This document shows positions 9,693-62,118 of a stretch of 64,000 nt of DNA, in pieces (position 1 is the stretch's first letter; every line of letters starts with the position of its first letter). The notes beneath the pieces were generated by a model. The model worked only from the letters and a program-made list of their open reading frames with translations, was not told where the DNA came from and did no database searches. Source of the DNA: Patescibacteria group bacterium (lineage in GTDB: Bacteria; Patescibacteriota; Microgenomatia; UM-FILTER-40-11); NCBI GenBank assembly GCA_035530075.1, contig DATKVM010000004.1, positions 2,132 through 66,131 on the forward strand. The letters run 5' to 3'. The translations under genes were made by a program, and so were the position numbers.

Positions 9693-9749
9693 GGCTCAAG
9701 ATTATATCACCAAAGCTGAAGAATAGCTGAAAAACGAGCAAGATGAAGT

Positions 9750-10796: not shown

Positions 10797-10947
10797 AAAA
10801 GGCTAGTCTTATCCTTCCCGCCTAAATTCCCTTCAAGAAAAGTTTTGCTTTTTTAATGAACAAAACTAGATTATAATGTAACTGAGCCTAAAAACATTAA
10901 TTTTGGCGGGTTGACTCCAATTATACCAGAAGCTAAACTCAGAGAAT

Positions 10948-11529: not shown

Positions 11530-11531
11530 AA

Positions 11532-12374: not shown

Positions 12375-12375
12375 T

Positions 12376-12621: not shown

Positions 12622-12678
12622 ATCTATTAAAGACTATAAATTAACTTTTCACGGAAGTCAAGTCCAATTGTTAGCGGA

Positions 12679-12993: not shown

Positions 12994-13042
12994 AAAGTGA
13001 TATTTTACTTCAACTGCCGGCAATTTGCAATTCAAAGTTACC

Positions 13043-26128: not shown

Positions 26129-27220
26129 TTACATCAGTTCTTCGACTTCAAAGAGGATTCTTGCAGTGGCGTCAACCTCGATCTTAGGAGAAGCGGGGGA
26201 AACCTTCTTGCTTGACAAATTTTTCTCAAATTCCAAAATTGTTTCCCAAAGCTTACCTGCCTCCAAATCCTTTTGAGGCAAAATTATCCCCAAACCGGCC
26301 GCCACCAGCACTTTGGCATTTTCTTCTTGCTCATTGCCGCTCGCCCAAGGAATGGGGATTAAAATCGCCGGCTTTTTCAAAGCCAAAAGCTCATAAACCG
26401 TATGGGCCCCGGCTCGGGAAATGATAAAATCCGCTGTTCGGAAAACTGAGCCAATTTCGTCTTCAAAAAAATATTCTTTCACCAGATAATCTTCTCCCTT
26501 GTCGCCTAAGTTTTCCTTAATCTCCCTCGCTTTTTTTATATCATTAAAAAGGGTGGTCGAGCCGCATTGATGGATAACATTAAATCTTTCCAACAACTGA
26601 GGCAGAATGGCAAAAACAGCCTCGTTAATTACGTGGGCCCCCTGTTTGCCGCCAGTAATATAAATCGTTTTTTTGGCATTTTGGAAAAGTTTTTTACCCT
26701 TTTTTAAAATCTCCCTTCTTATTGGCAAACCAGTCACTACTACCTTTTCTTGGGGAAAATATTTACTCGAAGAAGGGTAGGTAATAAAAACCTTTTTAGC
26801 AATTTTGGCAATCATCTTATTCGCCCAACCGGAAACGGTTGTTTGCTCATGAGTCACCACTGGAATACCAAGAAGCCAGCCGGAATAAGCCACCGGCAGA
26901 GCCAAATAGCCACCGAAGGAAAAAATCAAATCCGGCTTAATTTTTTTGAGACCGACAAAACTTTGCCAAAAGCCCAAAGGAATTCGGAGTAGATTAGACC
27001 AAAATTGATAACGGGGCTGGAATTTACCGGCTTTGATTTCGGTGAAAGGAAAACCCTTTTGAGTTACTTCCAAATATTCGGCGCTAGGATTTTCATCGCC
27101 AATCATTGAATATTTATGACCAAACCAAAAAACCTGATGGCCTTTCTCCCGCAAACCCTCTGCCACTACCAAAGCGCTGTTATGATGACCCCCGCAAAAC
27201 ACTATTTTCTTTTGATACAT
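26129..27220 (-). CDS. murG: UDP-GlcNAc:undecaprenyl-PP-MurNAc-pentapeptide GlcNAc transferase
   Basis: The protein has the GT28 two-domain architecture, with N-terminal VFCGGHHNSAL and C-terminal ISRAGAHTVYELLALKKPAILIP motifs. It lies at the dcw-cluster position. Confidence 0.85.
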   Translation of the reverse strand: MYQKKIVFCGGHHNSALVVAEGLREKGHQVFWFGHKYSMIGDENPSAEYLEVTQKGFPFTEIKAGKFQPRYQFWSNLLRIPLGFWQSFVGLKKIKPDLIFSFGGYLALPVAYSGWLLGIPVVTHEQTTVSGWANKMIAKIAKKVFITYPSSSKYFPQEKVVVTGLPIRREILKKGKKLFQNAKKTIYITGGKQGAHVINEAVFAILPQLLERFNVIHQCGSTTLFNDIKKAREIKENLGDKGEDYLVKEYFFEDEIGSVFRTADFIISRAGAHTVYELLALKKPAILIPIPWASGNEQEENAKVLVAAGLGIILPQKDLEAGKLWETILEFEKNLSSKKVSPASPKIEVDATARILFEVEELM

Positions 27221-27241
27221 TTGATGCTTTTGATACTTTTA

Positions 27242-28330
27242 CTACCTTTTGCTGTTCTTAGAAATATTGTACACAATTCCCATCCCGCTTAAGGAAACCA
27301 AAAGTGAGGAACCGCCATAGGAAATAAATGGCAAAGGCACACCAGTCAAAGGCACTAAAGCCACCATTGCTCCCAGATTAACAATAGCCTGAAATCCTAA
27401 AGAAAAAATAATTCCTGCCACAAGCAGTTGAGCAAATCGGTCTTTCAAATAAATCGCCAGCCTCATCCCCCGTAAAACCAATATTAAAAACAAAAAAACT
27501 AAGCTCCCAGCTCCTAAAAATCCAAACTCTTCAGCGATTACGGCAAAAATCGAATCGGTGGTCACCTCCGGCAAAAATAGAAATTTCTGGCGCGACTGGC
27601 CTAATCCTCGGCCAAAAATTCCCCCACTACCCAAGGCAATCAAGACTTGACGAATATGATAAGAAGCGTCCTGAGCATCCCAGGAAGAGTTTAAAAAACT
27701 AAGCAGTCTCTGTCGACGATAAGGGGAGAACCAAATTAAAATAGGACCCACAATAGCAATTGCTACTCCTAAGCTCAGTACTTCTTTCCAAGGTGCGCCA
27801 GCAATAAAATAAAGGCCAAAAGCAGTGGCGGCAATAATTGTGGCTGTCCCTAAATCAGGCTCCAAGAGTAGCAAAGCCAAAGATAAGCCTACCACGGCGA
27901 CAAAAACCGAGAAACTCCTTTTTTTTTCAAAAAAAGTGGCTAAATAAATAACTAAAGACAGCTTGATTAATTCTCCTGGTTGAAAACCAAGAGGTCCAAT
28001 TTGCAACCAGCGCCGACCGCCATAAATTTCTCTACCAATACCAGGAATTAAAACCGCTAATAAAAAAGCAAAACTGAGCAATAAAAAAGGAAGGGCAATT
28101 TTTTTGAGCAAACGATAATCAAGAAAAGCGAAAAAGAAAAACAAAACCAAACCCAAGACTAGCCAAATTGACTGATGTTTCAAATAATAAAACTTATCGC
28201 CAAAATCAGCCAAAGCCGTCACTGAAGAAGCATCAAATATCATAAACAGGCCGAAAATGCTTAGGATTAAGGCGAAGAAAAAAAACCAACGGTCACCAAT
28301 TTTAAGCGATAGGCTTCGGGGTTTCAGCAT
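27242..28330 (-). CDS. ftsW: SEDS-family lipid II flippase/polymerase FtsW
   Basis: A 10-TM SEDS protein between the ATP-grasp gene and murG in the dcw cluster. Confidence 0.8.
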   Translation of the reverse strand: MLKPRSLSLKIGDRWFFFFALILSIFGLFMIFDASSVTALADFGDKFYYLKHQSIWLVLGLVLFFFFAFLDYRLLKKIALPFLLLSFAFLLAVLIPGIGREIYGGRRWLQIGPLGFQPGELIKLSLVIYLATFFEKKRSFSVFVAVVGLSLALLLLEPDLGTATIIAATAFGLYFIAGAPWKEVLSLGVAIAIVGPILIWFSPYRRQRLLSFLNSSWDAQDASYHIRQVLIALGSGGIFGRGLGQSRQKFLFLPEVTTDSIFAVIAEEFGFLGAGSLVFLFLILVLRGMRLAIYLKDRFAQLLVAGIIFSLGFQAIVNLGAMVALVPLTGVPLPFISYGGSSLLVSLSGMGIVYNISKNSKR

Positions 28331-29667
28331 TTTTCCAGTTTAACCTCATTCCTAATTTTTTCCGCTAATTGAACATACTCCTTCCGCAAAGCTCCTTTTT
28401 CATCGCTCACCTTCTCCAGGGTATCGAAACGCGCCAACTCAATTTCCGGATTCACTTGACGACCTTCAGCCGCCACCGTTAACCAAAGTTCTTCCCGGTT
28501 TTTAGTGGAAAGAAAATAGCTTTCTTTAATAAATTCCAGCGGCAGTCGGTAAAGACCGCTCGGCAAGCTCTGCCGGACTTTTTGGGGCAAACTAGTGGTA
28601 TTACGCAGAACCACTTCGCTTCCGACCACCGAAGGAGGTTCCCATTCATCGATTTCAGCCTTGAAAGGTAAGAAAGCCAGTAAATGATAGGCCAAAAGGG
28701 GCAAAACACCAACCCCTAGTTCCAATTTAGTGTAAAAAGGAACTGAAGCAGTTAAACGAGCATTGTTCTCCGAAACAAAAATCTCTCCGTTCTCTTCGTC
28801 AATTAAGAAATCAAGCCCAAAAAAACCACGGTAACCTTCCTTGGCCATTAATCGGCCGACTTTCCGCGTGATTGCCTCTATCTTACTTTCCTGCTTAGTT
28901 ATCCCGGCTACCGGCCATTGGCGACCTCCAGTACCGCCGGTCGCGGCGGTTAAGAGAGGATGAGATTTTACTTGCAACGCCGGCCGGCTAATTAATATTT
29001 GGTTATCCCAAATTACCGCGTTATTAAGAAACGTCCTTCCTTTGACAAAACGACCGACTTTTACCCGCAACGAACCATAATCTTTCTTCAACCTTTCCAA
29101 TTCTTCCGGGCTCCTAACAAAAAAAGTAGAGCTGCCTGCCCAACCCCGGCCGAACTGTAAGACCAGAATCTCTCCGTACAAGCGAGCCATTTCATTAAAC
29201 GAGAGGCCGGCCAGTTCGGCAATTTCACCCGGCGCAGTCCGAATCCCCACTTTTTGGCAAAATTCAAAAAAGGCAACCTTGTCCTCAAAGCGGCGGTTTA
29301 ACTCCACCGGATTGCCCAGAAGGTTAAAATGGTGCTCTTGAGCTAAAACTTCAATCTTTTTTTGCGGCTTAAAAAACAAAATTTGAGGAGTTCTCCCTCC
29401 GGCTTTCTCTTTAATGAATGTCAAGACTGCTGGCTGAGATAAAATATTACCGCTCACTCGGGCAAGAACATTTTTCTTACCCACGCTCCTTTCAAGACAA
29501 AAAACTGAAACTCCATTCTTTTGCAAAATATCTACCAAAGGATGATCGTCCAGGCAAACAATATGATAGTTGGGCAAAAGATTTTCCAAACCGATTCCCT
29601 GCCCTACATCATTCGTGACATAAAAAATCGGCTGGGTTAGATTGTGCAAATAATCAATTTCTACCAT
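28324..29667 (-). CDS. ATP-grasp domain ligase of unknown specificity, at the position where murD normally sits
   Basis: The C-terminal ATP-grasp core is GYRGFFGLDFLIDEENGEIFVSENNARLTAS, preceded by Gly-rich ATP-binding loops. The N-terminal roughly 150 aa are unassigned. Confidence 0.65.
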   Translation of the reverse strand: MVEIDYLHNLTQPIFYVTNDVGQGIGLENLLPNYHIVCLDDHPLVDILQKNGVSVFCLERSVGKKNVLARVSGNILSQPAVLTFIKEKAGGRTPQILFFKPQKKIEVLAQEHHFNLLGNPVELNRRFEDKVAFFEFCQKVGIRTAPGEIAELAGLSFNEMARLYGEILVLQFGRGWAGSSTFFVRSPEELERLKKDYGSLRVKVGRFVKGRTFLNNAVIWDNQILISRPALQVKSHPLLTAATGGTGGRQWPVAGITKQESKIEAITRKVGRLMAKEGYRGFFGLDFLIDEENGEIFVSENNARLTASVPFYTKLELGVGVLPLLAYHLLAFLPFKAEIDEWEPPSVVGSEVVLRNTTSLPQKVRQSLPSGLYRLPLEFIKESYFLSTKNREELWLTVAAEGRQVNPEIELARFDTLEKVSDEKGALRKEYVQLAEKIRNEVKLEKC

Positions 29668-29678
29668 TGCTCAATGCT

Positions 29679-30623
29679 TTAATACTTTTTCCCGGTTAAT
29701 AAACAAACGGCTTTCCCTACTGGCCAACCGCCAGTTTTGGCTTTTTTCCAGGCAGCATAAGCCAAGGCGCCTTCGGCCGAAGTAATAATTTCTTTCTTTC
29801 CTAAATCTTCTTGTGCTTCTTTAACCTCTTGATTGCTGATTACCCAACCAGTTCCTCCTGATTCTCTGACTAAACCGGCCACTTTTTGCCGCAAAGGAGT
29901 ATATTTGGCGACTAAAGCTTCTGACAAACTGGCCTCCTCCGGCTGAAAATTCTTAGTAAAAAGGGAGGCAATCGGACAGACGGCCGCCGGCTGGCAAACA
30001 TGCAACCGAGGTAAAAAGCCGATTTTTTTAAAGCCTTCGGCCATTCCTACCAGCGCTACTCCACTGGAAACCGGGATAAAAATGTCCTCCACTGCTCCCT
30101 CACTTTCTGCCAACTCAAAAGCAATCGTCTGATAGCCCTCTGGGCCGAATTTATTTCGTGATGGCCTTAAATTCAAAACCCCTTTTCGACGGCTGAATTT
30201 TACCGCCTCACTCACCGGTCTGTCTGAAGAACTAATCACTACCCCCGCCTTCCTCAACTGCGCCAATTTCCCTTCATTAATTTTCGGTGAAACAAAAACA
30301 TGAAGGTCAATCCCCGCCAAGCGGCAATATTGGCTGGCGGCAACAGCAGCGTTGCCGGATGAAGAAAGTACTACCTCTTTCTTACCCAAACTTTTAGCCC
30401 AACTAACCAGATAAGCCATCCCTCGGTCCTTAAGCGAGCCGTTGGGATTCTCATCCTCCCGCTTTAAAGTCAGTCCTTCTCCCAAAGCGACCTCGGCTGT
30501 CCCCCCTTCTCCTAATGAGAGTTTAAATTCATCCGGCAGGGGTGAGAGATAGGCCGAATATTGCCAAATTCCCTTCCCTTGATTGTCCTTCAAAAGTCCA
30601 ATTTTTAGCTTGCTTTTTATCAC
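29679..30623 (-). CDS. PLP-dependent enzyme of the threonine synthase / Trp-synthase-beta fold family
   Basis: NPNGSLKDRGMAYLV matches the PLP-lysine motif (S-F/L-K-D-R-G) of threonine synthase-like enzymes, and there is a Gly-rich SSGNAAVA loop. At 314 aa it is shorter than canonical ThrC. Confidence 0.6.
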   Translation of the reverse strand: MIKSKLKIGLLKDNQGKGIWQYSAYLSPLPDEFKLSLGEGGTAEVALGEGLTLKREDENPNGSLKDRGMAYLVSWAKSLGKKEVVLSSSGNAAVAASQYCRLAGIDLHVFVSPKINEGKLAQLRKAGVVISSSDRPVSEAVKFSRRKGVLNLRPSRNKFGPEGYQTIAFELAESEGAVEDIFIPVSSGVALVGMAEGFKKIGFLPRLHVCQPAAVCPIASLFTKNFQPEEASLSEALVAKYTPLRQKVAGLVRESGGTGWVISNQEVKEAQEDLGKKEIITSAEGALAYAAWKKAKTGGWPVGKAVCLLTGKKY

Positions 30624-30687
30624 CGAGTATCCTAATATCTTAATATCCTAGTATCCTAATGACCTATTATAGTATAAGGAGGGTTAA

Positions 30688-30846
30688 ATGACGAAAACAA
30701 TTCAATGTCCTGACTGTGAAACCGTCATCATTGTTCCTGACGATGCCCAAGCCGGCGATATTGTCGAATGCGAAGACTGCGGTAACGAATTTGAGATTGT
30801 CTCCACTAATCCTCTTCAAGTGGCAATGGTGGTGGAAGAAAAATAA
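30688..30846 (+). CDS. LysW-like zinc-ribbon amino-group carrier protein (52 aa), absent from the ORF track
   Basis: A strong SD (AAGGAGGG) lies 7 nt upstream. The protein MTKTIQCPDCETVIIVPDDAQAGDIVECEDCGNEFEIVSTNPLQVAMVVEEK matches the LysW pattern CPxC-x14-GE/D-l-V-x-C-x-D/E-CG-x-E-l-E-V-V-S-x-D/N-P-L and has an acidic C-terminal EEK. Confidence 0.5.
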   Translation: MTKTIQCPDCETVIIVPDDAQAGDIVECEDCGNEFEIVSTNPLQVAMVVEEK

Positions 30847-30851
30847 TTCTC

Positions 30852-31610
30852 TCAAGCCCAAATTTTCAGCCTTTTAAGGCCGTCGCCCTGAGAAGAAAGA
30901 AGCATTTGTTTGTAACTATCACCGTTAGGAAGAGTTTCCTCCCATTCTTGATCAGCTAATCCTCCTTCCAGATTGGTAATCTTAATTAGGCCACTATGAA
31001 CCCCTGGTACAGCCGTCTTTTCTGATGAGTGGACATACTCTATTTCCCTCACTTTCCCCAAATCCCTTACCACTTTTATGACGACAGCGATATGTTTTCC
31101 CCCATGTAAACGGATAGTGTCGCCCACTCGAATCTCATCTATCTTTTTCACCGGAATAGACAAATTCTTACCGGTCAGCTTATCGGCACTGACCTGGCGT
31201 TGGGCTAAAGTGCCCGGGAGACGGGGAATAAGGTCAGCTATCCCCCTCCCGCCTCTTCCTCTATCCAAAGCGTCCAGCATCCAAAAAACAAAGCCGGAGC
31301 AATCAACACCAATTTTTTTTCTTTTCATAAAAGCCAAAATTTCTTCTTCTGACATCTGATTAAGATTAACTGCCGCTTTTTTGGCTGCTGACTCTGTTGC
31401 TTCTACGATCTGTTCTGGTTTTCCTTTACCCCCAAACGGCCCAGTGATAGCCAATGAAAGCCTATTGCGCCAATAAGGGCAGCTAATTTCCTTCCCGCCA
31501 ATAGGCAAGTGAGTATATTGATAAAACAGACTCTCTAAAGCCTTCGAATTTTGCACTTTGCACTCTTGTCCTGAGCTTTGTCGAAGGATTGCACTTTGCA
31601 CTTTCGTCAT
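30852..31610 (-). CDS. NlpC/P60 (C40) family cell-wall peptidase
   Basis: The catalytic Cys motif (GVDCSGFVFW) and a downstream His (HIAVVIK) are present. The start was moved to the Met at 31608-31610, forming an ATGA overlap with the mraY stop. The N-terminus is encoded by repeat element copy A. Confidence 0.6.
   Translation of the reverse strand: MTKVQSAILRQSSGQECKVQNSKALESLFYQYTHLPIGGKEISCPYWRNRLSLAITGPFGGKGKPEQIVEATESAAKKAAVNLNQMSEEEILAFMKRKKIGVDCSGFVFWMLDALDRGRGGRGIADLIPRLPGTLAQRQVSADKLTGKNLSIPVKKIDEIRVGDTIRLHGGKHIAVVIKVVRDLGKVREIEYVHSSEKTAVPGVHSGLIKITNLEGGLADQEWEETLPNGDSYKQMLLSSQGDGLKRLKIWA
31551..31604. repeat. Intragenic repeat element, copy A (core CTTGTCCTGAGCTTTGTCGAAGGAT flanked by TGCACTTTGCACT tandems)
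   Basis: An exact 25-nt core is shared with copies at 36846 and 63353. Here it encodes the N-terminus MTKVQSAILRQSSGQECKVQ of the NlpC/P60 gene. Confidence 0.75.
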
Positions 31611-32641
31611 ATGTATGCTAGCCAAAGCCCAATAATGGCCAACATAATTGCTGCCAACCAAGCCCGCATCACGATTTTCGGCTCTTCCCAACCCTGGTTT
31701 TGTAGCCAAAGATGAAAAGGAGCAACCGCAAAGGCTTTTCTTTTTAAAAATTTCTTGGAAAGAATTTGAATTAAGCTTGAAGTGACTTCAACCACAAAAA
31801 TACCCCCAATGACCAGCAAAGCGACCACTTTACCAATTAAAAGTCCCACTACGGCCAAGGTAGCCCCAAAAGATAAAGCGCCAACATCCCCCAGAATAAT
31901 TCTGGCCGGATAAACATTGAAGTACAGGAAGGCGATTAAACTCCCTATCCAAAGAGCGATAAAAACCGAAAGCGGGGTATCCAAGACTGAATGAGAAAGC
32001 AACCAAAAGGCAAAAAGGCAAATTAAGAGCACCCCCGAAGACAAACCATCCAAGCCATCAGTGATATTAAAAGCATTGGCAAAAGCCACAATCGCCAAAG
32101 CTGCCAGTGGGATAAAAATGGGGCCTAATTTCAAGACCCCTAAAGAAGGAATATTGATAATGTCAATCTTCAAATTGAAATACATTAAAGAGCTGATAAT
32201 AAAGGCCAAAATCCATTGAATGGCAAATTTGTGCCGTAACCTTAGGCCAAAAAAGCCGCTTTTTTCAAAACCAAAGAATTTTTTGATATCATCATAAAGT
32301 CCTAAAAGACCAAAGGAAACAAAGGTAAAAAAAAGAATGTTAAGCTCATCCGTCATTCGGTAGGCACTCCGAATATAGGTCCCCAGAAAAGAAAGCAAGG
32401 GGAAAAGGATTAAATACAAAAGAAAAGTGACGCCGATAACTAATAAACCCCCTCCGACTGGCGTACCTGCTTTGGGATTATTAAATTTGTCAAAAATGCG
32501 GGTCCGTTGGCCCTCCATATCACGAGTTTGTTGAACCCGACGATAAAATTTCAATTTATAGAGAAGATTAATAAACGGCACCACCAGAATACTGGTGATT
32601 AAAAAAGAAAAGATAAGTAGCCCGAGATACAACGCAATCAT
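31607..32641 (-). CDS. mraY: Phospho-N-acetylmuramoyl-pentapeptide transferase
   Basis: A polytopic membrane protein carrying the NITDGLDGL motif, the Asp-rich loops and the C-terminal HH motif region. Confidence 0.9.
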   Translation of the reverse strand: MIALYLGLLIFSFLITSILVVPFINLLYKLKFYRRVQQTRDMEGQRTRIFDKFNNPKAGTPVGGGLLVIGVTFLLYLILFPLLSFLGTYIRSAYRMTDELNILFFTFVSFGLLGLYDDIKKFFGFEKSGFFGLRLRHKFAIQWILAFIISSLMYFNLKIDIINIPSLGVLKLGPIFIPLAALAIVAFANAFNITDGLDGLSSGVLLICLFAFWLLSHSVLDTPLSVFIALWIGSLIAFLYFNVYPARIILGDVGALSFGATLAVVGLLIGKVVALLVIGGIFVVEVTSSLIQILSKKFLKRKAFAVAPFHLWLQNQGWEEPKIVMRAWLAAIMLAIIGLWLAYI

Positions 32642-32648
32642 GTAAAAT

Positions 32649-36192: not shown

Positions 36193-36195
36193 AGA

Positions 36196-37137: not shown

Positions 37138-37157
37138 CTATGTAACATATATATATG

Positions 37158-38606
37158 TTACACTTCTACCCCCTGGAACTTTTGAGTTATTTCCTCTATT
37201 AAGTTGCTAAATCTTAAACCTCCGGACGACATAAAGACAATTATGTCTCCTTCCTTGGTCTGGTGGGTCAGGTATCCAATTAGTTTTTCATCCACCGGTT
37301 CGTAAAAAACCTTCGGTTGGGTTTCGCCAATCGCTCCAACAATATCCGAACCGGTTACTCTTTGCTCTTTAGGTATTTCTTTCAAAAAACTTACCTTACT
37401 GACAATCACCTGGTCAGCGCTATCAAAGACAGTGGAATACCACTGCAAGCTCTCTCTGAACTTTAACGCGGTTGCGAATGGATTAAAAACACAAATAATC
37501 CTGCTTTCTGGGAAAAAATCTCGCAGTGCCAAAAGAGACCCTTTAACTTTTTCTTGGAATTGGGCAATATCTGAAAAAAGATATCTTCCCCCAAATTTTC
37601 CTAATAACTCTAACCTGCTTTTAACTCCCTTAAACGTCTTTAAGGCTTTCTTGATCGTCCCCGAATCAATTCCTAGTTCAAGCGACATGGCGACCGCACC
37701 ACAAATGTTCTGCAGGTTATGTTTCCCAATCAAAATCGTTTCCAGGTCAATTTCTTGGTTTTTAAATGAAATGGTGAATTTTGTTTTTCCGTTCTCAATC
37801 GAATAGTTTTTAACATAACAATCCGCATTGGTTGAATCAAAAGAATAACTAATCTTCCGACTGGGATATTGTTCCGCAACTTCAGGTCTGACATTTTCCA
37901 ATTCATAAACCAAAATTCCATCTTCGGGAAGTAGTTTAACAAGTTCAATAAAAGCCTTTAAATATTGCTCTTCAGATTTGTACACCTCAGGATGATCCCA
38001 AATGGTCGCGGTCAAGAGAAGATACTTCGGTTTGTAATACATAAATTTTGGCAAATCACAAGGACCAAGGGCCGGGCATTCATCACCCTCCGTTACTGAA
38101 TATCCAGAGTTAGTAATTTGGATTCCATCGGGAAAATTAATCGGGATATCTGAAATCATATATGAGGGATTCTTTCCAGCCACTTTTAAAATCCAGGTTA
38201 TAATAGCCGAAGTGGTTGTCTTACCAAAACTGCCCGCTACCACAACAGAGTTTTCTTTAATTAGGTACTTCTCAAAAGCTTCTGGGAATGACATTACTGG
38301 ACAAGAAAGCTTCTTTGCTTCCAAGTATTCGGGGTTATCAAGATCAATCATTCTCGCACTTCGGCCAATGATTACCAAATTAGCATCTTTGGGCACATTT
38401 CTAGCATCATAACCCTTAATATAGGGGATTTTATTCTCTCGGAGATAGGTGGAAATGGGAGGGTAAACGTTTTTCTGGTCCGATCCTGAAACTTCCCAAC
38501 CCATACCTTTAAAGGCCTTAGCCAAAGGGGCCATAGTTTTACCAGCGATCCCGATAAAATAGACTTTTCTCAAATAAGCTTTTTTCAAATAAGCTTTTTT
38601 TGCCAT
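37158..38606 (-). CDS. murC: UDP-N-acetylmuramate--L-alanine ligase (MurC/Mpl-type)
   Basis: The N-terminal VYFIGIAGKTMAPLAKAFKGMGWEVSGSD matches the MurC/Mpl Rossmann-like domain, followed by the Mur ligase central and C-terminal domains. The N-terminus carries a tandem duplication (KKAYLKKAYL) from a 12-bp DNA repeat. Confidence 0.65.
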   Translation of the reverse strand: MAKKAYLKKAYLRKVYFIGIAGKTMAPLAKAFKGMGWEVSGSDQKNVYPPISTYLRENKIPYIKGYDARNVPKDANLVIIGRSARMIDLDNPEYLEAKKLSCPVMSFPEAFEKYLIKENSVVVAGSFGKTTTSAIITWILKVAGKNPSYMISDIPINFPDGIQITNSGYSVTEGDECPALGPCDLPKFMYYKPKYLLLTATIWDHPEVYKSEEQYLKAFIELVKLLPEDGILVYELENVRPEVAEQYPSRKISYSFDSTNADCYVKNYSIENGKTKFTISFKNQEIDLETILIGKHNLQNICGAVAMSLELGIDSGTIKKALKTFKGVKSRLELLGKFGGRYLFSDIAQFQEKVKGSLLALRDFFPESRIICVFNPFATALKFRESLQWYSTVFDSADQVIVSKVSFLKEIPKEQRVTGSDIVGAIGETQPKVFYEPVDEKLIGYLTHQTKEGDIIVFMSSGGLRFSNLIEEITQKFQGVEV

Positions 38607-38613
38607 ATTCGGA

Positions 38614-39399
38614 CTAAAGATTTACTCGAATACCGTAATTGCTCAATAGCTCGTGTAAATCCCCTTCGTGAAAACTCTCAAGATAATCCTTATCTCTTAG
38701 GAGGTATTCTTCGCTTCCTCTCTTTAGAAGAGCCTTTAATTCGGCTAAATTCTTTGACCAACTAAAGCCATTAAAAAACTCAACTCCACTAAATTCGGTT
38801 TTATAAAGCGCTCCTTCATCATAACAAGTTCCTAAATAAACAAACTCACAACCTTTGTCTTTGGCCCAGGAAACCGCCTCTAGCATCATGCGTGCCCCCA
38901 AACTCCCGCTTAGATACTTCAAATCATAAAATGCGTGAGCGTATTGCAACAGTTGGTTGTTAGCAAAACAAACAGCATAGCCTACTGGTTTTTTGTCTTG
39001 GTCTTTAAAGACAAAAACTCGGTTGTAAACTTGGCCAGTAAAAACACTTCTGATGGCTGGTACCGGGAAAATATCTTTCCCCAACCTTTCTTCGGCATAA
39101 TCTCGACAAAGCTTCTGGACATCAGCGCGGTAATCAAACTCCGTTAAAGAGACCATTTTGGCCGTGAAGTTCTCAGTCTTTTTCAAAATTCGCCGATTTT
39201 CACTCGAAAGCTCAAATTGGCTTAAGTTCACCCTGAGACCGCGAGAAAGATAATAAACATTTGGCAAGCTCCTGATAGGCAAGAAACCATTCTCATAGAT
39301 TTTGTTCTCTTCATCCCCCTCCTCTTTTAAGAGCCAAACTTGATAAGGGAAATGATATTTATCATAATCAGCTTTAAATTCACTGAAAAACAGTTTCAT
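38614..39399 (-). CDS. ATE/Bpt-family (arginyl/leucyl-tRNA--protein transferase-like) protein with an ATE_C-like domain
   Basis: QYAHAFYDLKYLSGSLG...EFVYLGTCYDEGALYKTEFSGVEFFNGFSW matches the ATE_C consensus (SAVYxFYDP..SLG...YVYLGYWI....YK..F.P.E...GW). No ATE_N Cys motif is present. Confidence 0.55.
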   Translation of the reverse strand: MKLFFSEFKADYDKYHFPYQVWLLKEEGDEENKIYENGFLPIRSLPNVYYLSRGLRVNLSQFELSSENRRILKKTENFTAKMVSLTEFDYRADVQKLCRDYAEERLGKDIFPVPAIRSVFTGQVYNRVFVFKDQDKKPVGYAVCFANNQLLQYAHAFYDLKYLSGSLGARMMLEAVSWAKDKGCEFVYLGTCYDEGALYKTEFSGVEFFNGFSWSKNLAELKALLKRGSEEYLLRDKDYLESFHEGDLHELLSNYGIRVNL

Positions 39400-40025
39400 A
39401 TTATTCCTTTCTGGATGGCGGCACTAATTCCTTTTGCCATCCATCTTGCAATCTTTTGCTGATTTTGTGTGTTTTTAATCCACTGGGCATCTTTTGGATT
39501 ACTAAGATAAACCATCTCGACTAAAATAGTGGGGATACCATACTTATTTGCCTCCTTGGTTCCCAGCAACATTCCCAACTTAGGATCAATATTAGCTTTC
39601 GTTTCATCTACTATCCCTCCGTCCTTTAAATCCAGCTCCTTAACTATTGTCCCGTGCACTATTTTTGCTATTTCTAAACTTTTTTCGGATATACTTTCTG
39701 CCATTGGGGGAGGGAAAAAAGTCCTTATGCCACGAATAGTCGGATTCCCATCTTTCGTTTGGTCGCAGTGAATCCTAAAGATAAAATCTGCCTCATTGTC
39801 TTTAGCAATCTTCACCCTCTTAATATTATCTATGACTTCGTCGTTGTCTTCTCTTGTCATCACCACTTGATAACCTTCCTCTTCCAACTTCTGCTTTAGG
39901 AATTCAGCCACCCTCAGATTTATCTCAACCTCACGAATCTCATCTTTACTCACAGCTCCATAGTTAACCTTCCCATCATTAAAGTAGGATGGATGTCCAG
40001 GGTCAAGGCAAATTTTCTTATTCAT
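39396..40025 (-). CDS. N-acetylmuramoyl-L-alanine amidase (Amidase_3 family)
   Basis: LDPGH...N, the FIFRIHCD region and E residues are consistent with the zinc amidase CwlV/AmiC family. Confidence 0.7.
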   Translation of the reverse strand: MNKKICLDPGHPSYFNDGKVNYGAVSKDEIREVEINLRVAEFLKQKLEEEGYQVVMTREDNDEVIDNIKRVKIAKDNEADFIFRIHCDQTKDGNPTIRGIRTFFPPPMAESISEKSLEIAKIVHGTIVKELDLKDGGIVDETKANIDPKLGMLLGTKEANKYGIPTILVEMVYLSNPKDAQWIKNTQNQQKIARWMAKGISAAIQKGII

Positions 40026-41250
40026 TTTTAGGTTTCAGCTGTTGCAGGGCTTTCTTAATTGCTTCTTGATCTGACCAGGGATATTCCTTTTTACCGAAAC
40101 ACATTGATTTTTCGTGGCCTTTACCGCAAATAACGACAATGTCACCCTTCTTGGCATTTTTAATGGCAAATTCGATGGCTTCTTGTCGGTTAGAAATAAT
40201 CGTTGGCTCCACGCCAACACGGCGGCAGCCAACGGCAATTTGGTTACAAATATCAACCACTTTTTCCGTCCGTGGGTCCTCGGCTGTCAAAACCACTAAA
40301 TCCGCCAGTTTCCCGGCAATTTTCCCCATCATTGGCCGTTTCCCTCGATCACGCAAGCCGGCCGCCCCGAAAACCACAATCAAACGCTGGTCTTTTTTTA
40401 AGTCCTCTCTTAAGGTTTTAAGAACTTGTTCCAAAGCATTGGGCGTATGGGCAAAATCGACCATCACTCGAAAACTTTTAGCTCTCCCCCCACTTACAAT
40501 CTCCTCCATCCGGCCGACTATTCCCCGAAAAGAAGCGACAGCTTTCCCGACTACCTCTTTATTTAAACCAAGAGCAGAAGCGGCCGCAATTGCCGCCAAA
40601 ATATTATAACGATTATATTCGCCCCTCAATGGGGTTTCAAAAGGGAAGTTGCGGGGAGTGAAATCCGCTTCTTGACTAATCCCATAAGAAAGCAAACGGC
40701 CCCCTTTTCCGCTGACCAATGATTCTAAAAAAGAGAAAGAGCCGTCGTCCCGATTGAGCACGGCAATTCTCGCCCGAGCAAAAAGTTTTGCTTTAGTTTG
40801 AAGATAGTGGGCAAAAGTCTGATGATAGTCCAAATGTTCGTGGGTAACATTAGTCAAAACCCCAATTTCATAGTTAATTCCCAAAAACCGGAATTGGTCC
40901 AAACCGTGGGAAGTCACTTCCATCACGACATACTTTATTCCACTTTGAACCATTTTCCTTAACAGCCTTTGGAGCAACTGCGGATTAGGTGAAGTTACAT
41001 GGAAACCGGTGTCAATCTCTTTCTCGCCAATTTTAGCCGAAACCGTGGAAACCATCCCGACTGACAAACCGGCCTCCTTAAGAATGTGGTAAATGAGGCT
41101 AACGGTAGTCGTTTTACCATCAGTCCCGGTAACGCCGACAATTTTAAGCTGTCGAGAAGGAAAACGATAGCGTAAAAGAGCCCATAAGGCTAAGGGCAAG
41201 TGCTTCCCGTAATTAATCGCTGCCTGCGGAATTAACGCTCGAACTCCCAT
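40018..41250 (-). CDS. murE: UDP-MurNAc-L-Ala-D-Glu--diamino acid ligase (MurE-like), lacking the usual N-terminal domain
   Basis: VGVTGTDGKTTT, DFAHTPNAL and CGKGHE are present. The fourth-residue specificity motif reads EDPR rather than the DNPR of meso-DAP-type enzymes. Confidence 0.7.
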   Translation of the reverse strand: MGVRALIPQAAINYGKHLPLALWALLRYRFPSRQLKIVGVTGTDGKTTTVSLIYHILKEAGLSVGMVSTVSAKIGEKEIDTGFHVTSPNPQLLQRLLRKMVQSGIKYVVMEVTSHGLDQFRFLGINYEIGVLTNVTHEHLDYHQTFAHYLQTKAKLFARARIAVLNRDDGSFSFLESLVSGKGGRLLSYGISQEADFTPRNFPFETPLRGEYNRYNILAAIAAASALGLNKEVVGKAVASFRGIVGRMEEIVSGGRAKSFRVMVDFAHTPNALEQVLKTLREDLKKDQRLIVVFGAAGLRDRGKRPMMGKIAGKLADLVVLTAEDPRTEKVVDICNQIAVGCRRVGVEPTIISNRQEAIEFAIKNAKKGDIVVICGKGHEKSMCFGKKEYPWSDQEAIKKALQQLKPKNE

Positions 41251-41322
41251 CGTTTATCCTTGACTATTATATCACTCTATAAGCTTCCCCGAACCAAAAG
41301 CCGCCATTATAGCCCGTTTCCC

Positions 41323-42996
41323 CTAATAATCAGGGGCAATCCCCCAAAGCCGAAATATCTCCTTGGCGATTTCAAACCAAAGCGGGGCCGCTGTTTCCGA
41401 GCCCCAAGGAGAGGTTTTAGGCTCTCTTAGGCTCACCAGCATCGCAAATTTCGGATTGTTCACCGGAGCAAAGCCAATAAAAGAAGCAATGGTCTTTTCC
41501 GGGTCATAATGGCCAGCAATGGGAATTTGGGCTGTTCCGGTTTTGCCAGCAATCTGATAGCCTTTTGGTTGCGCCCACTTAGCCTCTCCCTTTTCCACCG
41601 CCTCTACCATCATCTGAGTGATTATCTTGGCCGTCGAAGCAGAAATCGAGTTTCCCCGTTTTATGGGCTCAATCGTTATTGTTCGACTATCTTCGAAGAT
41701 TTTTTTCACTACTTGCGGTTGATAAAGCTTACCACCGTTGGCAATCACCGATACCGCCTCAAGCATCTGAATTGGCGTCACCGCAATTCCTTGACCGAAT
41801 GTCGCCGCCGCTAAATCAAGATCATACCAATCCTTCTTTTCTCGCAAAGAAGGGACGACCTCCCCTTGTAAATCAATATTAGTCTTTTCTCCCAGACCAA
41901 ATTTCTTCAAATAATCATAAAAACGGTTAAGGCCCAATTTTTCGCCCACATAAACCATTCCCACATTGTCCGAATGAACAATAATCTCTTCCATCGAAGA
42001 ATCGGGGAAATATTTATCGTTCCAGGTCTTAATGGTGTAATCACCAATCCGCCGTGGCCCATCACAAGAGGGGCAAATATCATCCGCTTTCACCACCCGA
42101 GCATCAATCGCGGCGGCCATCACCAGCACTTTAAAAATTGATCCCGGCTCAAAGGCAGAAGAAATAAGAGGATTGCGGAACAAATCTGGTTCGAAACGGG
42201 AATACTGGCTGGGGTCATAAGAAGGATAAGCGGCCATTGCCAAGACGGCTCCGTTTTGAGGATCCATAACCGCCACCCAACCAGAAGAAGCGCCATATTT
42301 CTCAATTCCCTTTTTTAAATAACTCTCTACTATAAACTGCAATGGTCGATCTAAATTGAGAAACAAATTTCGCCCGGCAATCGAACGCTCCTCCCATTCC
42401 TCTGCTAGCGGTAGCGGTCGACCCAAAGCATCTTGCTCAAAAAGGCGCTGGCCGGCTTTCCCCTTTAATTCATTATCATAATAACCTTCTAGACCAAAGT
42501 AGCCTTTAGGCTGGCCTTTATCATCTTCGCCGACAAATCCCAAAAGCTGAGCTGACATTGAAGCTTCTGGATAAAATCTTTTTTCAGACTCTTCAAAACC
42601 CAAGCCGGTAATCTGCAAATTTTCAATCGCTTTCTTGGTTTCTTCATTAAGGTCCTTCAGGAGAGGAAACCAAGCCACATTAGGAGGAAAGTCTTTTATT
42701 TCCTCTCCTTCCTTAACGAAAGCTTTCAATTTACTTTTTAATCCTGCCGAAGACAGCTTAATTTGCTGCGGATTAACATACAGGAGAAAAGCTTTCCGAT
42801 TAAGAGCTAGGGGGAAGTCATCTTTGCTAAATATCTTGCCTCGTGCTGCCGTTACTTCTTGGCGAGCATAGTGCTGACGAGTGGCCAAAGCGCTCAAATT
42901 TTTTTTCTGAAGGACCTGCCAATAAAAAAGCTTACCTCCGACGAAGAAAAAAGCGATTAAGAAGAAAAGCGCAACTAGCTTTAGCCTCTGCTCCAT
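41323..42996 (-). CDS. ftsI: Class B penicillin-binding protein / FtsI transpeptidase
   Basis: An N-terminal TM and dimerisation domain are followed by the SxxK (SIFK), SxN (SDN) and KTGT motifs. Confidence 0.85.
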   Translation of the reverse strand: MEQRLKLVALFFLIAFFFVGGKLFYWQVLQKKNLSALATRQHYARQEVTAARGKIFSKDDFPLALNRKAFLLYVNPQQIKLSSAGLKSKLKAFVKEGEEIKDFPPNVAWFPLLKDLNEETKKAIENLQITGLGFEESEKRFYPEASMSAQLLGFVGEDDKGQPKGYFGLEGYYDNELKGKAGQRLFEQDALGRPLPLAEEWEERSIAGRNLFLNLDRPLQFIVESYLKKGIEKYGASSGWVAVMDPQNGAVLAMAAYPSYDPSQYSRFEPDLFRNPLISSAFEPGSIFKVLVMAAAIDARVVKADDICPSCDGPRRIGDYTIKTWNDKYFPDSSMEEIIVHSDNVGMVYVGEKLGLNRFYDYLKKFGLGEKTNIDLQGEVVPSLREKKDWYDLDLAAATFGQGIAVTPIQMLEAVSVIANGGKLYQPQVVKKIFEDSRTITIEPIKRGNSISASTAKIITQMMVEAVEKGEAKWAQPKGYQIAGKTGTAQIPIAGHYDPEKTIASFIGFAPVNNPKFAMLVSLREPKTSPWGSETAAPLWFEIAKEIFRLWGIAPDY

Positions 42997-42997
42997 G

Positions 42998-43258
42998 TTA
43001 ACGCCTTAAAGCAACTGAAAGGTCAACTTTGGGTTCCGCCTTAAGCGTCAGGGCATAACCAGCTTGGGTGGCTTTCTGAGCAATCGTCGCACAAGAAACT
43101 TGAGAAGCAACCAATAACTCCAGTTCTTGATTATCATTAACCAAACCATTAATCTTCCTCTCAAATTCTGAAACTGACCCACCATAAGTCACTGTCTTAC
43201 TGGTAAGGATTGTTTGGATAACAAAACAAATTAATAAGATAAGAAACAATTTTTTCAT
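42998..43258 (-). CDS. FtsL-like small bitopic membrane protein
   Basis: An 86-aa protein with one N-terminal TM. Its position between rsmH and ftsI is the conserved ftsL slot. Confidence 0.5.
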   Translation of the reverse strand: MKKLFLILLICFVIQTILTSKTVTYGGSVSEFERKINGLVNDNQELELLVASQVSCATIAQKATQAGYALTLKAEPKVDLSVALRR

Positions 43259-43263
43259 AAATT

Positions 43264-44217
43264 TTAATCCTCTAACTTTTCCGCGGCTCTTAATTTCGCG
43301 CTCCGCGCGCGTGGGTTTTGACGGACTTCACTCTCAGTCGGCTCAACCGGTTTTTCAGTTAAAATATTCAGCTTCCCAACCAATTCCATTTCTTGAAAAA
43401 ACCGCTTGATTATTCCATCTTCTAAAGAATGAAAAGACAGAACAACCAGCCTGCCTTTCGGTTCTAAAAGCGCTACTGCCTGCGGTAGCGCTTCTCTTAG
43501 ACTCTCTAGCTCATCGTTAACCGCAATTCGCAGCGCCTGAAAAACTCGCGTTGCCGGATGAGTCCAATCAAACTTTCCGCGAGGCGGGGCTACGCATAAG
43601 ATAATTTGAGCCAGTTCGTTGACCGTTTCAATTTTCTTTTTTTCTCGAGCTCGGCAAACTGCTCGGGCATAACGCCGCCGATATTTCTCCTCTCCAAACC
43701 GCCAAAATAGTTCCGCCAGTTCCTTTTCGCTCAAAGCGTTAACTAAGTCTTTGGCCGTCACCGCCAGCCGTGGATCCATTCTCATATCTAAGGGGCCTTC
43801 CAAATTAAAGGAAAACCCCCGGTAAGCCGCCTCCAGCTGATGACTGGAAACCCCCAAGTCAAAAAGAATCCCATTCACTCTCTCAAAGCCGTTTTCCCGG
43901 GCCAGTTTACCAATATCGGCAAAATTACCCCTCACTACCTTAGGGGGTGGAATTTTGCCCTGTACCATCTGGTGCAGGGCTGGGCAGGCCTTTTTTAATC
44001 TTTCACCGGCATACTCAATCGCTTCGGGGTCACGGTCAATCGCTAAAAGCTCTCCACCGCGTTTTAAAATCTCTAAACTGTGGCCTCCACCTCCCAAGGT
44101 AGCATCAATAAATTTTTTTCCCGGCTCAACTTTCAGGTAGTCGACTGTTTCTTTTAAAAGAGCAGGTGTGTGGTACTCACCCTTAACCAACATTTGTCTG
44201 TCCCAGTTTTTCGGCAA
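43264..44217 (-). CDS. rsmH: 16S rRNA (cytosine1402-N4)-methyltransferase RsmH/MraW
   Basis: The SAM-binding motif (DATLGGGGHS) and the conserved DLGVSS and FHSLED motifs are present. Confidence 0.9.
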   Translation of the reverse strand: MPKNWDRQMLVKGEYHTPALLKETVDYLKVEPGKKFIDATLGGGGHSLEILKRGGELLAIDRDPEAIEYAGERLKKACPALHQMVQGKIPPPKVVRGNFADIGKLARENGFERVNGILFDLGVSSHQLEAAYRGFSFNLEGPLDMRMDPRLAVTAKDLVNALSEKELAELFWRFGEEKYRRRYARAVCRAREKKKIETVNELAQIILCVAPPRGKFDWTHPATRVFQALRIAVNDELESLREALPQAVALLEPKGRLVVLSFHSLEDGIIKRFFQEMELVGKLNILTEKPVEPTESEVRQNPRARSAKLRAAEKLED

Positions 44218-44617
44218 TCTGACCGATGTTTTCGTGCAAATATTTCTGGTATTCTTCCCAAATTCCTTTATCCCAAACTTCTACATATTGATTCAAGCCC
44301 AGAAAAACCACTTCTTCATTCATCTTGGCGTACTCTCGCAAATAACCGGGAAGGACAAACCTCCCTTGTTCGTCCAGGCCAATTTCGCTCGCTTCCCCCA
44401 AAAGGAATCGATTCGTATCTCGGGCGGAACCAAAGATAAACGGTTTATTTTGAGTTACTCCCACTAATGATTGCCAATCTTTAGTTGAAACTACCATTAA
44501 AGAATTCTCGTAGCCAACTGTCACTACTAAGTTATCACCCAATTCTTCCCGAAACTTTTTAGGGAAAGCAATTCGGCCTTTCGGGCTAATTTTAGAACGA
44601 TATTGACCAATTAGCAT
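44183..44617 (-). CDS. mraZ: Transcriptional regulator MraZ
   Basis: The two-repeat MraZ fold has the characteristic DxxxR elements (DEQGRFVLP; GSARDTNRF). It is the first gene of the dcw cluster. Confidence 0.85.
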   Translation of the reverse strand: MLIGQYRSKISPKGRIAFPKKFREELGDNLVVTVGYENSLMVVSTKDWQSLVGVTQNKPFIFGSARDTNRFLLGEASEIGLDEQGRFVLPGYLREYAKMNEEVVFLGLNQYVEVWDKGIWEEYQKYLHENIGQIAEKLGQTNVG

Positions 44618-46863: not shown

Positions 46864-46900
46864 TCGAGTATATCAATTCCCCTCTTAAAAAACAAAAAAA

Positions 46901-47449: not shown

Positions 47450-47480
47450 CCTTATTTTAGCCTTCACGGAGTTTCGGAAG

Positions 47481-50128: not shown

Positions 50129-50129
50129 T

Positions 50130-52821: not shown

Positions 52822-52841
52822 TTAAAAAATCTTTGGCTACC

Positions 52842-53645: not shown

Positions 53646-53677
53646 TTTGTAATATATGTAAATATATGTTACATGAC

Positions 53678-57750: not shown

Positions 57751-57763
57751 AGCAACTGGCTAA

Positions 57764-59215: not shown

Positions 59216-59226
59216 TTGGCAGTCAA

Positions 59227-62112: not shown

Positions 62113-62118
62113 CTTAAT

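Follow-up and report, generated by a model that had tools for sequence, protein, structure and literature searches.

A conserved gene module encoding a LysW-like protein, a PLP enzyme and an ATP-grasp protein in the murD position of a Microgenomates-type cell wall cluster

This analysis concerns the murD position in the division and cell wall (dcw) gene cluster of a Patescibacteria metagenome-assembled genome (MAG) of the Microgenomates/Shapirobacteria-like type. The window, by which we mean the whole stretch of DNA analysed, comprises 64 kb of a 137-kb contig, with about 2 kb between its start and the nearer contig end. Genes were identified in it by Pfam and NCBIfam scans and, for the remainder of the window, from a precomputed Pfam annotation. 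The dcw cluster extends over positions 26129-44617 on the minus strand, with the order murE, amidase, ATE-like gene, murC, murB, murA, ddl, murF, mraY, four further genes, ftsW and murG. We refer to the place of these four genes as the slot. It is bordered upstream by mraY (31607-32641, minus strand; PF00953), the product of which is 58-87% identical to the MraY proteins of related loci, and downstream by ftsW (27242-28330, minus strand; PF01098, 329 bits), whose start overlaps the end of the last slot gene. The slot contains the genes of an NlpC/P60-like protein of 252 amino acids, here called X285 (30852-31610, minus strand; identified by motifs and profile comparison), a LysW-like zinc-ribbon protein of 52 amino acids (30688-30846, plus strand; PF21344), a threonine-synthase-like pyridoxal phosphate (PLP) enzyme of fold-type II and the PALP family with 314 amino acids (29679-30623, minus strand; PF00291, 158 bits) and a biotin-carboxylase/PurK-like ATP-grasp protein of 447 amino acids (28324-29667, minus strand; identified by AlphaFold2 (AF2) modelling and Foldseek).

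No protein of the Mur-ligase fold with MurD as its best family model was found in the 64-kb window. To our knowledge, MurD is otherwise universal among bacteria that make peptidoglycan. When the three ligases of the cluster and Escherichia coli MurD were compared by phmmer with the six-frame translation, only three Mur-ligase open reading frames (ORFs) were detected, namely MurE (410 amino acids; 40018-41250, minus strand; TIGR01085, 404 bits), MurC (482 amino acids; 37158-38606, minus strand; TIGR01082, 250 bits) and MurF (403 amino acids; 32649-33860, minus strand; TIGR01143, 243 bits). Family hidden Markov models (HMMs) separated these three cleanly into C, E and F, with best scores of 552-661 bits and runners-up of at most 94 bits; the window MurF, for example, reached 661 bits with the MurF model versus 75 bits with that of MurD. 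Scores with the MurD model were 108 bits for MurE, 72 bits for MurC and 55 bits for MurF. MurE was also matched by NF001126 (385 bits), and MurC, which fell below the MurC equivalog cut-off, scored 187 bits as Mpl. In the precomputed Pfam annotation, neither another Mur ligase nor an Asp_Glu_race gene appeared in the rest of the window. A MurD in another part of the window is ruled out by the six-frame search together with the Pfam annotation, and a misassigned MurD among the three ligases by their scores with NCBIfam models and family HMMs. An earlier note on this DNA, made from the sequence alone, had reported that MurD was missing from the window, as we also found, and had left room for a reassignment of the genes at 32649-33860 or 40018-41250 to MurD; by their HMM scores, these are clearly MurF and MurE. 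The same note had placed an NlpC/P60 peptidase, a LysW-like gene, a PLP enzyme and an ATP-grasp protein in the murD position. Family scans and profile comparison support this gene content, and the order given there needs the amendment that the LysW-like gene is transcribed divergently, from the plus strand.

Neither the window MurE nor the window MurF has the N-terminal UDP-binding domain, that of MurF being truncated: no PF01225 match was obtained for either, and the Mur_ligase_M domain begins at residue 40 in MurE and at residue 28 in MurF. The PF01225 domain is kept in MurC. We also noticed that the window MurE carries EDPR at the position where enzymes of the meso-diaminopimelate type carry DNPR, and that the MurF of a close relative (locus L090) has 533 amino acids.

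The ATP-grasp protein is 100% identical to the NCBI entry 'hypothetical protein VMW04_01565'. It had no Pfam match, including to the RimK-family PF08443, and with the NCBIfam model PRK06524 it scored 112 bits, far under the cut-off of 684; it is not a biotin carboxylase proper. A profile search against the PDB gave E=8e-4 at best. The AF2 model had a predicted local distance difference test (pLDDT) score of 96.2 and showed a three-domain ATP-grasp fold, for which Foldseek found biotin carboxylase in the PDB (E=1e-17) as well as PurK, PurD and PurT, with template modelling (TM) scores of about 0.63 and 12-16% identity. The structure yields generic matches of the biotin carboxylase/PurK class only. 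In an alignment of 87 sequences, K100, E128, K130, D286 and E300-x-N302-x-R304 were invariant; K100 and K130 are presumably the lysines that bind ATP, and the last motif we assign to the biotin carboxylase branch, taking it to be the Mg/ATP motif from what is known of biotin carboxylase. The family is represented by at least 120 clusters in a collection of 15 billion proteins, all from sources of the candidate phyla radiation (CPR) type. We then compared 57 copies linked to a MurD with 35 copies from MurD-less loci: the two sets share 24 conserved positions, and none is differentially fixed, therefore the job of the ATP-grasp protein looks the same in both kinds of locus.

For the PLP enzyme, the best NCBIfam and PDB matches were to threonine synthase (ThrC), all of them below the family cut-offs (100-120 bits with NCBIfam ThrC models versus cut-offs of 301-421; 61 versus 167 bits with TIGR00260). 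The PLP-lysine motif GS.KDR was conserved among 69 homologues. A family signature, nLRpS.d, stands where ThrC has NPYRLEG, and in comparison with the structure 6cgq the window enzyme has SSGNAA for STGNTS and NKFG for NPYR. In ThrC, as in the Thermus thermophilus structures, the Thr of the STGNT motif and the Arg of NPYR bind the phosphate of O-phosphohomoserine. With scores below all cut-offs and changed phosphate-binding residues, an ordinary threonine synthase was rejected as the identity of this enzyme.

The probable start of X285 is an ATG that overlaps the stop codon of mraY; the mechanically called ORF extends to 31709. The motifs CPYW, DCSG, GD.IR..GG.H and Y.HSS are invariant, and across 23 homologues D103-C104-S105-G106 and H173 are invariant and H194 is conserved in at least 90%. 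With PF00877, the window protein gave only E=0.25 and its relatives about 1e-3. An hhalign comparison of the X285 family (the same number of homologues) with PF00877-positive neighbours of MurD gave a probability of 95.5% and E=1.6e-8 over the Cys/His core. The AF2 model, built from just four sequences, had a pLDDT of 69, and Foldseek returned no match at E<0.01. X285 is probably cytoplasmic, because no N-terminal hydrophobic segment is visible in its sequence.

The LysW-like protein matched PF21344 (Zn_ribbon_LysW) with 49.6 bits (cut-off, 27; E=2.9e-13) and ends in ...VVEEK. Annotation of its homologues by the Joint Genome Institute agrees with a LysW zinc-ribbon. An AGGAGG Shine-Dalgarno sequence lies 7 nt upstream of its ATG. 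In related loci the tail ends in EEK in 104 of 112 proteins and in EK in 110 of them, so that the terminal residue is Lys; a Glu-ending tail of the EDWGE type was not found. The gene was opposite in strand to the PALP gene in 98 of 101 cases. The genes that act with LysW in known pathways, that is LysX/ArgX of the RimK type, LysZ, LysY, LysJ and LysK, were found neither in the window nor in related loci. The divergent intergenic region of 64 bp between the LysW-like and PLP-enzyme genes (30624-30687) holds a TATAAT box and three TAGGATA repeats. In relatives the corresponding region keeps the TATAAT box and has short tandem repeats of its own, specific to the lineage; from this pattern, the region may serve as a promoter or operator, with the repeats as operator sites.

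Related loci were collected in two ways: at least 80 by a scan with the ATP-grasp protein, taking one genome per GTDB species, and at least 80 more from metagenomes with a module-linked MurD as the query. About 150 related loci from CPR bacteria and Chloroflexota were available overall. All are MAG or metagenome contigs with taxonomic labels as in the records, and each locus (labelled L) comprises the query gene and at most 10 kb on either side. The ATP-grasp loci were labelled mainly as Shapiro-, Gottesman-, Woese- and Roizmanbacteria, Parcubacteria, Saccharibacteria, Dojkabacteria, Peribacteria and Chloroflexota/Anaerolineae. A core consisting of the reversed LysW-like gene, PALP and ATP-grasp was found in almost every locus, and directly upstream of it a MurD is encoded in MAGs labelled as Gottesmanbacteria, Parcubacteria, Saccharibacteria and Peribacteria and in Chloroflexota. 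In L039, L050 and L061 the whole series is mraY, ..., NlpC/P60, MurD, LysW-like (reversed), PALP, ATP-grasp, ftsW, murG; in about 20 Gottesmanbacteria loci, X285, MurD, LysW-like (reversed), PALP and ATP-grasp stand together outside the dcw cluster. The metagenome loci showed the same arrangement. The ligases of these loci scored far better with TIGR01087 than with any other model (153-256 bits; cut-off, 212), and PF00877 gave 58-70 bits for the gene that immediately precedes MurD in L039, L050, L061, L078 and L049. Where the whole slot was visible, 42 loci had MurD together with the three partners and 33 had the three partners without MurD.

The association extends to gene fusions. Three proteins (P0193, P0196 and P0215) are X285-MurD fusions whose N-terminal 235 residues align with the window X285 over its full length, five others (P0396, P0401, P0406, P0410 and P0426) are NlpC/P60-MurD fusions, and P0389 is a MurD-PALP fusion with the module signature DLRPSRD in its PALP half. 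Among the ten long MurD-family proteins scanned, none was fused to an ATP-grasp domain. The full module thus consists of an NlpC/P60-like protein, a MurD of a particular subtype (MurD*, described below), the divergent LysW-like gene, the PLP enzyme and the ATP-grasp protein, and it usually lies in or beside the murD slot. It is highly probable, in our judgement, that the four slot genes of the window are the accessory part of this conserved and widespread module and not a stand-alone substitute for MurD. In full-text searches, no paper was found that connects LysW to either MurD or peptidoglycan, and in the literature searched none describes the module or the absence of murD in Microgenomates. 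Separately, fusions of MurD with MurB (P0431) and with further Mur ligases (P0397 and P0483) were also seen.

When about 40 module-linked MurD proteins were aligned with E. coli MurD, all catalytic and gamma-carboxylate-binding residues were conserved, including K115, N138, E157, H183, the carbamoylated K198, T321 and K348. The C-terminal loop, in which E. coli Ser415, Leu416 and Phe422 bind the alpha-carboxylate of D-glutamate (D-Glu), was altered: two residues are deleted from it, and no PALP-linked MurD retains Ser415. Where the canonical loop reads SPxxxS(L/F)(D/G)xF, the remodelled one reads SPxxxxF-(Y/F)(S/T)x(F/Y); we call the subtype with the latter MurD*. A PALP gene lay within 3 kb of 71 MurDs with the remodelled loop and was missing from this distance in 6, versus none and 11, respectively, for MurDs with the canonical loop (Fisher p=4e-10, for loci that are not phylogenetically independent). 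The canonical loop is thus confined to MurDs without the module. In MurD*, the position equivalent to E. coli 182 is Asn (rarely Asp) and 348 is Lys; the determinants Glu197 and Arg358 of MurD2 (E. coli 182 and 348), the L-Glu-specific enzyme discussed below, are absent. A MurD2-like specificity of MurD* for L-Glu was rejected, as neither known determinant is present.

We also looked for glutamate racemase. MurI was absent from the 80 ATP-grasp-centred loci, from the window and from the further 80 MurD-centred loci, and it was seen in the CPR loci L087 (5728-11434) and L088 (5794-11437), which have a canonical MurD and the order mraY, MurI, Amidohydro_3, Cu-oxidase_4 (PgeF-like), MurD, ftsW. 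Complementarity between the module and MurI is only suggestive. Genes of the Amidohydro_3 family, which includes D-aminoacylases, also lie near and upstream of the NlpC/P60-MurD* pair in L039, L050, L061 and L078; as the family includes N-acyl-D-glutamate deacylases, their position near murD hints at a salvage of D-Glu.

The absence of MurD from the window can be understood from close relatives. Locus L089 has the order mraY, PaaX-like gene, X285, MurD*, LysW-like (reversed), PALP, ATP-grasp, ftsW, murG, whereas L090 and L091 have X285, MurD*, PALP and ftsW and lack the LysW-like and ATP-grasp genes. In neighbour-joining (NJ) trees from short alignments of FtsW+MurG and of ATP-grasp, L089 fell inside the clade of the window in both and L091 in the FtsW+MurG tree. 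L090 was in neither tree; its MraY is 70% identical to that of the window, the same distance as several MurD-less members. From these arrangements and tree placements it follows that the window carries the full module minus MurD*, which has been lost in this clade from between the hydrolase and the LysW-like genes. The loss from the slot was probably recent and recurrent. The MurD-less state occurs also in the Woesebacteria locus L036, in a large clade of Shapirobacteria-like loci that we call group 2 and in the L026 group. The reduced form with X285, MurD*, PALP and ftsW, a mirror image of the window, was seen in L090 (10001-12347), L091, L119/L120 and possibly L126. In group 2 (L048-L081, e.g. 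L055, positions 1-13170), the dcw clusters are without murB, ddl, murF and murD, the ATP-grasp genes are shorter (346-384 amino acids) and the X285 genes are more divergent.

A MurD* orthologue that had merely moved to another place in the genome would be expected to be at least 45% identical to P0229 or P0233. Among the matches listed, a search of 90%-identity clusters with a Gottesmanbacteria MurD* returned in that region only P0229, P0233 and the entries P0230-P0232 and P0234, one of which is the Gottesmanbacteria-type MurD* of L014 and two of which are partial. A metagenome scan for MurD* gave, again among the matches listed, only L091 at 72%, and a HMMER search over 1.84 billion representatives gave P0229 as the nearest other listed cluster to P0233, at 46%. 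None of the listed MurD* matches lay on a MurD-less contig, and more than 100 MurD-less genomes of the clade were unrepresented. The ATP-grasp protein of the same clade, by contrast, was represented by more than 100 clusters. A relocated MurD* orthologue, judged from these searches of metagenomes and of the 15-billion-protein collection, is therefore unlikely.

What could the module do? We propose that it supplies or tailors residue 2 of the stem peptide, which would be D-Glu or a derivative of it, for example one substituted at the alpha-carboxyl group. This role is suggested because MurD* is fused to module partners and has a remodelled pocket, because NlpC/P60 enzymes usually have specificity for gamma-D-glutamyl bonds, and because there is a precedent for ligases joined to racemases or other suppliers (MurF-Alr and MurC-Ddl). 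In such a pathway, the LysW-like protein would be the carrier, and its EEK tail would receive an amino acid from the ATP-grasp enzyme. The PLP enzyme would then convert the loaded amino acid, perhaps most simply by stereo-inversion if fusions of ligases with racemases such as MurF-Alr are taken as a guide, and the NlpC/P60 hydrolase would release the product or hand it to MurD*, with its remodelled alpha-carboxylate pocket. This carrier-based order of reactions, drawn from analogy, is tentative, and we think it rather doubtful in its details. An altered peptidoglycan chemistry, which the earlier note had considered, is possible; the best evidence that would point to it is the remodelled D-Glu-binding loop in the MurD* sequences of relatives. 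Taken as a whole, the explanation that combines the conserved module, the loss of MurD* in the clade of the window and a role in supplying or tailoring residue 2 is the one we favour, and we hold it to be somewhat probable.

Several observations weigh against this explanation. Only the gene associations are observed, and the order of reactions and the amino acid loaded are guesses. The tail of the LysW-like protein ends in Lys and not, as in LysW, in the Glu that is the attachment site. The PLP enzyme is nearest to threonine synthase and not to known racemases, and the assignment of the window X285 to NlpC/P60 rests on profile comparison, its AF2 model being poor and without a fold match. The link to MurI is weak, since murI is found beside murD in one lineage (two loci) and is absent beside the other canonical MurDs. 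The reciprocal loss within one clade, where some members have MurD* and PALP and others the LysW-like, PALP and ATP-grasp genes, fits a partial redundancy between MurD* and the ATP-grasp/carrier pair. Finally, the ligation step itself is left without an assigned enzyme in this genome. The matches listed include no MurD* orthologue for the clade, and a MurD encoded elsewhere would have to be a different one that has not been observed.

Such a MurD elsewhere in the genome, canonical or horizontally acquired and possibly accompanied by murI, with the slot genes keeping their accessory job, is a serious contender and ranks first among the options for the ligation step, although we lean slightly away from it. 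It would agree with the otherwise universal occurrence of MurD in peptidoglycan makers, which is established knowledge, and with the intact state of all other Mur enzymes of the window; much of the 137-kb MAG contig, too, lies outside these roughly 64 kb. Moreover, dcw clusters are often fragmented in this group, as in the group-2 loci without murB, ddl and murF in the cluster, an orphan MurD* away from its partners exists (L141), and a recurrent loss of MurD* from several branches would not be surprising in genomes that already had a second MurD. This has to be set against the failure to find, among the matches listed, any MurD* at least 45% identical to P0229 or P0233 in a clade with more than 100 ATP-grasp clusters, and against the lack of a canonical-loop MurD in the Microgenomates-type loci fetched, save possibly the weak-scoring orphan L166. 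All 11 canonical-loop MurDs counted come from lineages of another kind; in the tree, those whose locus includes FtsW and MurG group with Parcubacteria-type sequences or other phyla. Besides a murD encoded elsewhere, the earlier note had considered a non-orthologous ligase for the second residue, with an ATP-grasp ligase in the murD slot. On this reading, the ATP-grasp protein of MurD-less lineages, together with the LysW-like protein, would add residue 2 to UDP-N-acetylmuramoyl-L-alanine and would have displaced MurD. An ATP-grasp protein is indeed in the slot, where it is the sole ligase-type enzyme left; the reciprocal loss in sister lineages, with all three configurations in one clade, the missing MurD* orthologue among the matches listed for the clade and the intact module across many MurD-less lineages (33 loci) would also fit such a take-over. 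The ligase role is nevertheless weakened by the co-occurrence of the ATP-grasp protein with MurD in the 42 fully visible loci from several phylum-level groups, where a long-term redundancy is unlikely, by the lack of any differentially fixed residue and hence of any sign of a new function, and by fusions that tie MurD* to NlpC/P60 and PALP and, in the ten proteins scanned, never to ATP-grasp. The biotin carboxylase/PurK/PurD/PurT fold class likewise gives no hint of UDP-sugar binding. We regard this replacement as unlikely.

A bypass of MurD by salvage or by a tRNA-dependent step would make use of other genes of the cluster. In the salvage version, preformed L-Ala-D-Glu would be obtained from scavenged host muropeptides by the cytoplasmic Amidase_3 and NlpC/P60 proteins and joined to UDP-N-acetylmuramic acid by the MurC/Mpl-like ligase; in the tRNA version, the ATE/Bpt-like transferase would form the Ala-Glu bond from Ala-tRNA. 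ATE/Bpt enzymes acylate an N-terminal Glu or Asp using aminoacyl-tRNA. The transferase homologue of the window, encoded between murE and murC (38614-39399, minus strand; ATE_C/Bpt-like, PF04377, E=4e-6), was matched by NCBIfam arginyltransferase models at E=3e-14, below the cut-off, and its family had 2605 matches in the protein collection, the best 120 of the 2605 being all 48-85% identical. An ATE-like gene was present in every MurD-less locus with a visible murE-murC region, and all 80 MurD-centred loci were without one, an anticorrelation that is confounded by phylogeny. A bypass would also find support in the signal-peptide-less Amidase_3 and the NlpC/P60-like protein of the cluster, in the window MurC, which lies below the MurC equivalog cut-off and scores as Mpl as well (250 versus 187 bits), in MurE and MurF without a UDP-binding N-terminal domain, and in the literature view of CPR bacteria as epibionts with minimal biosynthesis. 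The amidase, however, is confined to the lineage of the window, a FemX-like side-chain function is the more conventional reading of the transferase, and an L-Ala-D-Glu dipeptide is not a known substrate of any Mur ligase, so that we consider the bypass improbable, a little more so than the replacement by the ATP-grasp protein. Also unlikely is the more far-reaching idea that a large Microgenomates clade makes peptidoglycan without any MurD-type ligase, with residue 2 prepared on the LysW-like carrier and transferred from it by the other slot enzymes, possibly together with the ATE/Bpt-like transferase. The absence of murD could finally be one step in the decay of the cluster in a lineage that is losing normal peptidoglycan, as the group-2 relatives with shortened ATP-grasp genes and without murB, ddl and murF in the cluster might suggest. 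All 17 other cluster genes of the window, including the four slot genes, are nevertheless intact full-length ORFs with strong family scores, and the MurD-less arrangement is kept at 43-71% protein identity over many lineages, which indicates purifying selection; decay is therefore very improbable indeed.

The module resembles several known systems in part. With the LysW/amino-group carrier protein (AmCP) systems of lysine, arginine and some Streptomyces metabolites it shares the PF21344 zinc-ribbon, an acidic tail, an adjacent ATP-grasp protein, a modifying enzyme and a hydrolase that might free the product. It differs from them in the tail (EEK with a terminal Lys instead of EDWGE with a terminal Glu), in the ATP-grasp protein (biotin-carboxylase/PurK-like with about 450 amino acids, whereas LysX is RimK-type) and in the partners, which are the ThrC-like PLP enzyme, NlpC/P60 and MurD in a dcw context, without LysZ, LysY, LysJ or LysK. 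In MurF-alanine racemase (NF008897) and MurC-Ddl (NF011171) fusions, as in P0389 and in the adjacency of MurD* and PALP, a ligase is joined to a possible supplier of its substrate. Alanine racemase, however, is of fold-type III, while the PLP enzyme of the module is of fold-type II, ThrC-like and at most a putative racemase. YkfC/DPP VI, gamma-D-Glu-diamino-acid endopeptidases that occur with YkfB, and Mpl are similar in being associated with D-Glu peptides and, as regards the former, in being cytoplasmic NlpC/P60 proteins. Sub-threshold matches (E 0.014-0.07) to SH3-like domains, including the SH3_16 'dipeptidyl-peptidase' domain, occur upstream of the catalytic domain in the copies of L049 and L078. 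In contrast to YkfC, the hydrolase of the module goes together with a biosynthetic MurD*, by gene neighbourhood or by fusion, and there is no epimerase of the YkfB type. In Mycobacterium tuberculosis, CysO-CysM-Mec+ makes cysteine on a protein carrier by means of an activator, a fold-type II PLP enzyme and a releasing hydrolase. The likeness is one of logic only (carrier, activating enzyme, fold-type II PLP enzyme and hydrolase); the carrier of that system is ubiquitin-like with a GG-thiocarboxylate, its activator is an E1-like adenylating enzyme and its hydrolase a JAMM metalloprotease, and none of them is known to be homologous to the proteins of the module.

A further parallel concerns position 2 itself. 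MurD2/MurL is an alternative D-Glu route in Xanthomonas and some Actinobacteria; its MurL component is one protein, has no recognised domain and generates AMP (PMC8788868). As in the module, a variant MurD stands beside one or more ATP-dependent accessory enzymes, no glutamate racemase is encoded nearby, and a dedicated add-on deals with the stereochemistry at position 2. The differences are that MurD* lacks the E197/R358 determinants and is changed in the Ser415 loop instead, and that the single protein MurL contrasts with the four of the module, which include an ATP-grasp enzyme, a PLP enzyme and a carrier-like protein; MurL was compared by its description only.

These findings indicate that a different MurD subtype, tied by gene order and fusion to its partners, is present in much of the CPR and in some Chloroflexota, and the subtype with its partners points to an undescribed supply or modification of residue 2. 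The cytoplasmic Mur pathway is generally seen as unvarying, and position 2 as always occupied by D-Glu, and we know of no deviation in the installation of D-Glu other than the MurD2/MurL route. If the proposed role were true, it would be a new use of amino-group-carrier-like proteins beyond lysine and arginine biosynthesis and secondary metabolism. If peptidoglycan were made without MurD and with residue 2 delivered from the carrier, this would be the first carrier-protein-dependent step in the synthesis of a wall precursor, and also the first case in nature of a walled bacterium that has lost MurD. The module would be categorically new if carrier-dependent synthesis of a wall precursor or a MurD-free pathway were demonstrated. 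The MurD-less lineages are in this sense a natural experiment: should closed genomes lack MurD, an 'essential' antibiotic target would have been bypassed in nature. The result also bears on how the capacity for wall synthesis is scored in metabolic reconstructions of CPR bacteria. All parts of the module are small soluble proteins and are open to direct in vitro and complementation tests.

The remaining genes of the cluster, all on the minus strand and, unless stated otherwise, identified by Pfam/NCBIfam, are mraZ (44183-44617), rsmH (43264-44217), an ORF of 86 amino acids in the ftsL position (42998-43258), ftsI (41323-42996), the Amidase_3 gene (39396-40025; 209 amino acids, Pfam), murB (36196-37137), murA (34870-36192), ddl (33857-34873) and murG (26129-27220). 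All the dcw genes that had been named in the earlier note can thus be recognised, ftsL by its position only and without a family match. The succession murE, murF, mraY given there has to be corrected, since the amidase, the ATE-like gene, murC, murB, murA and ddl intervene between murE and murF. The Amidase_3 gene, which encodes an N-acetylmuramoyl-L-alanine amidase, leaves no room for a signal peptide and overlaps both murE and the ATE-like gene.

Further downstream of murG, the window contains the genes of FtsA and FtsZ. A second gene of the FtsW/RodA family follows that of isoleucyl-tRNA synthetase downstream of ftsZ (13043-14113 and 14161-16977), and the same pairing recurs in L001 and many related loci. 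Upstream of mraZ (45574-64000) we observed a large cluster of polysaccharide and glycosyltransferase genes with GT2, GT4, PMT_2, Wzy_C, Bac_transf, DUF4012, radical-SAM-like and DUF218 members.

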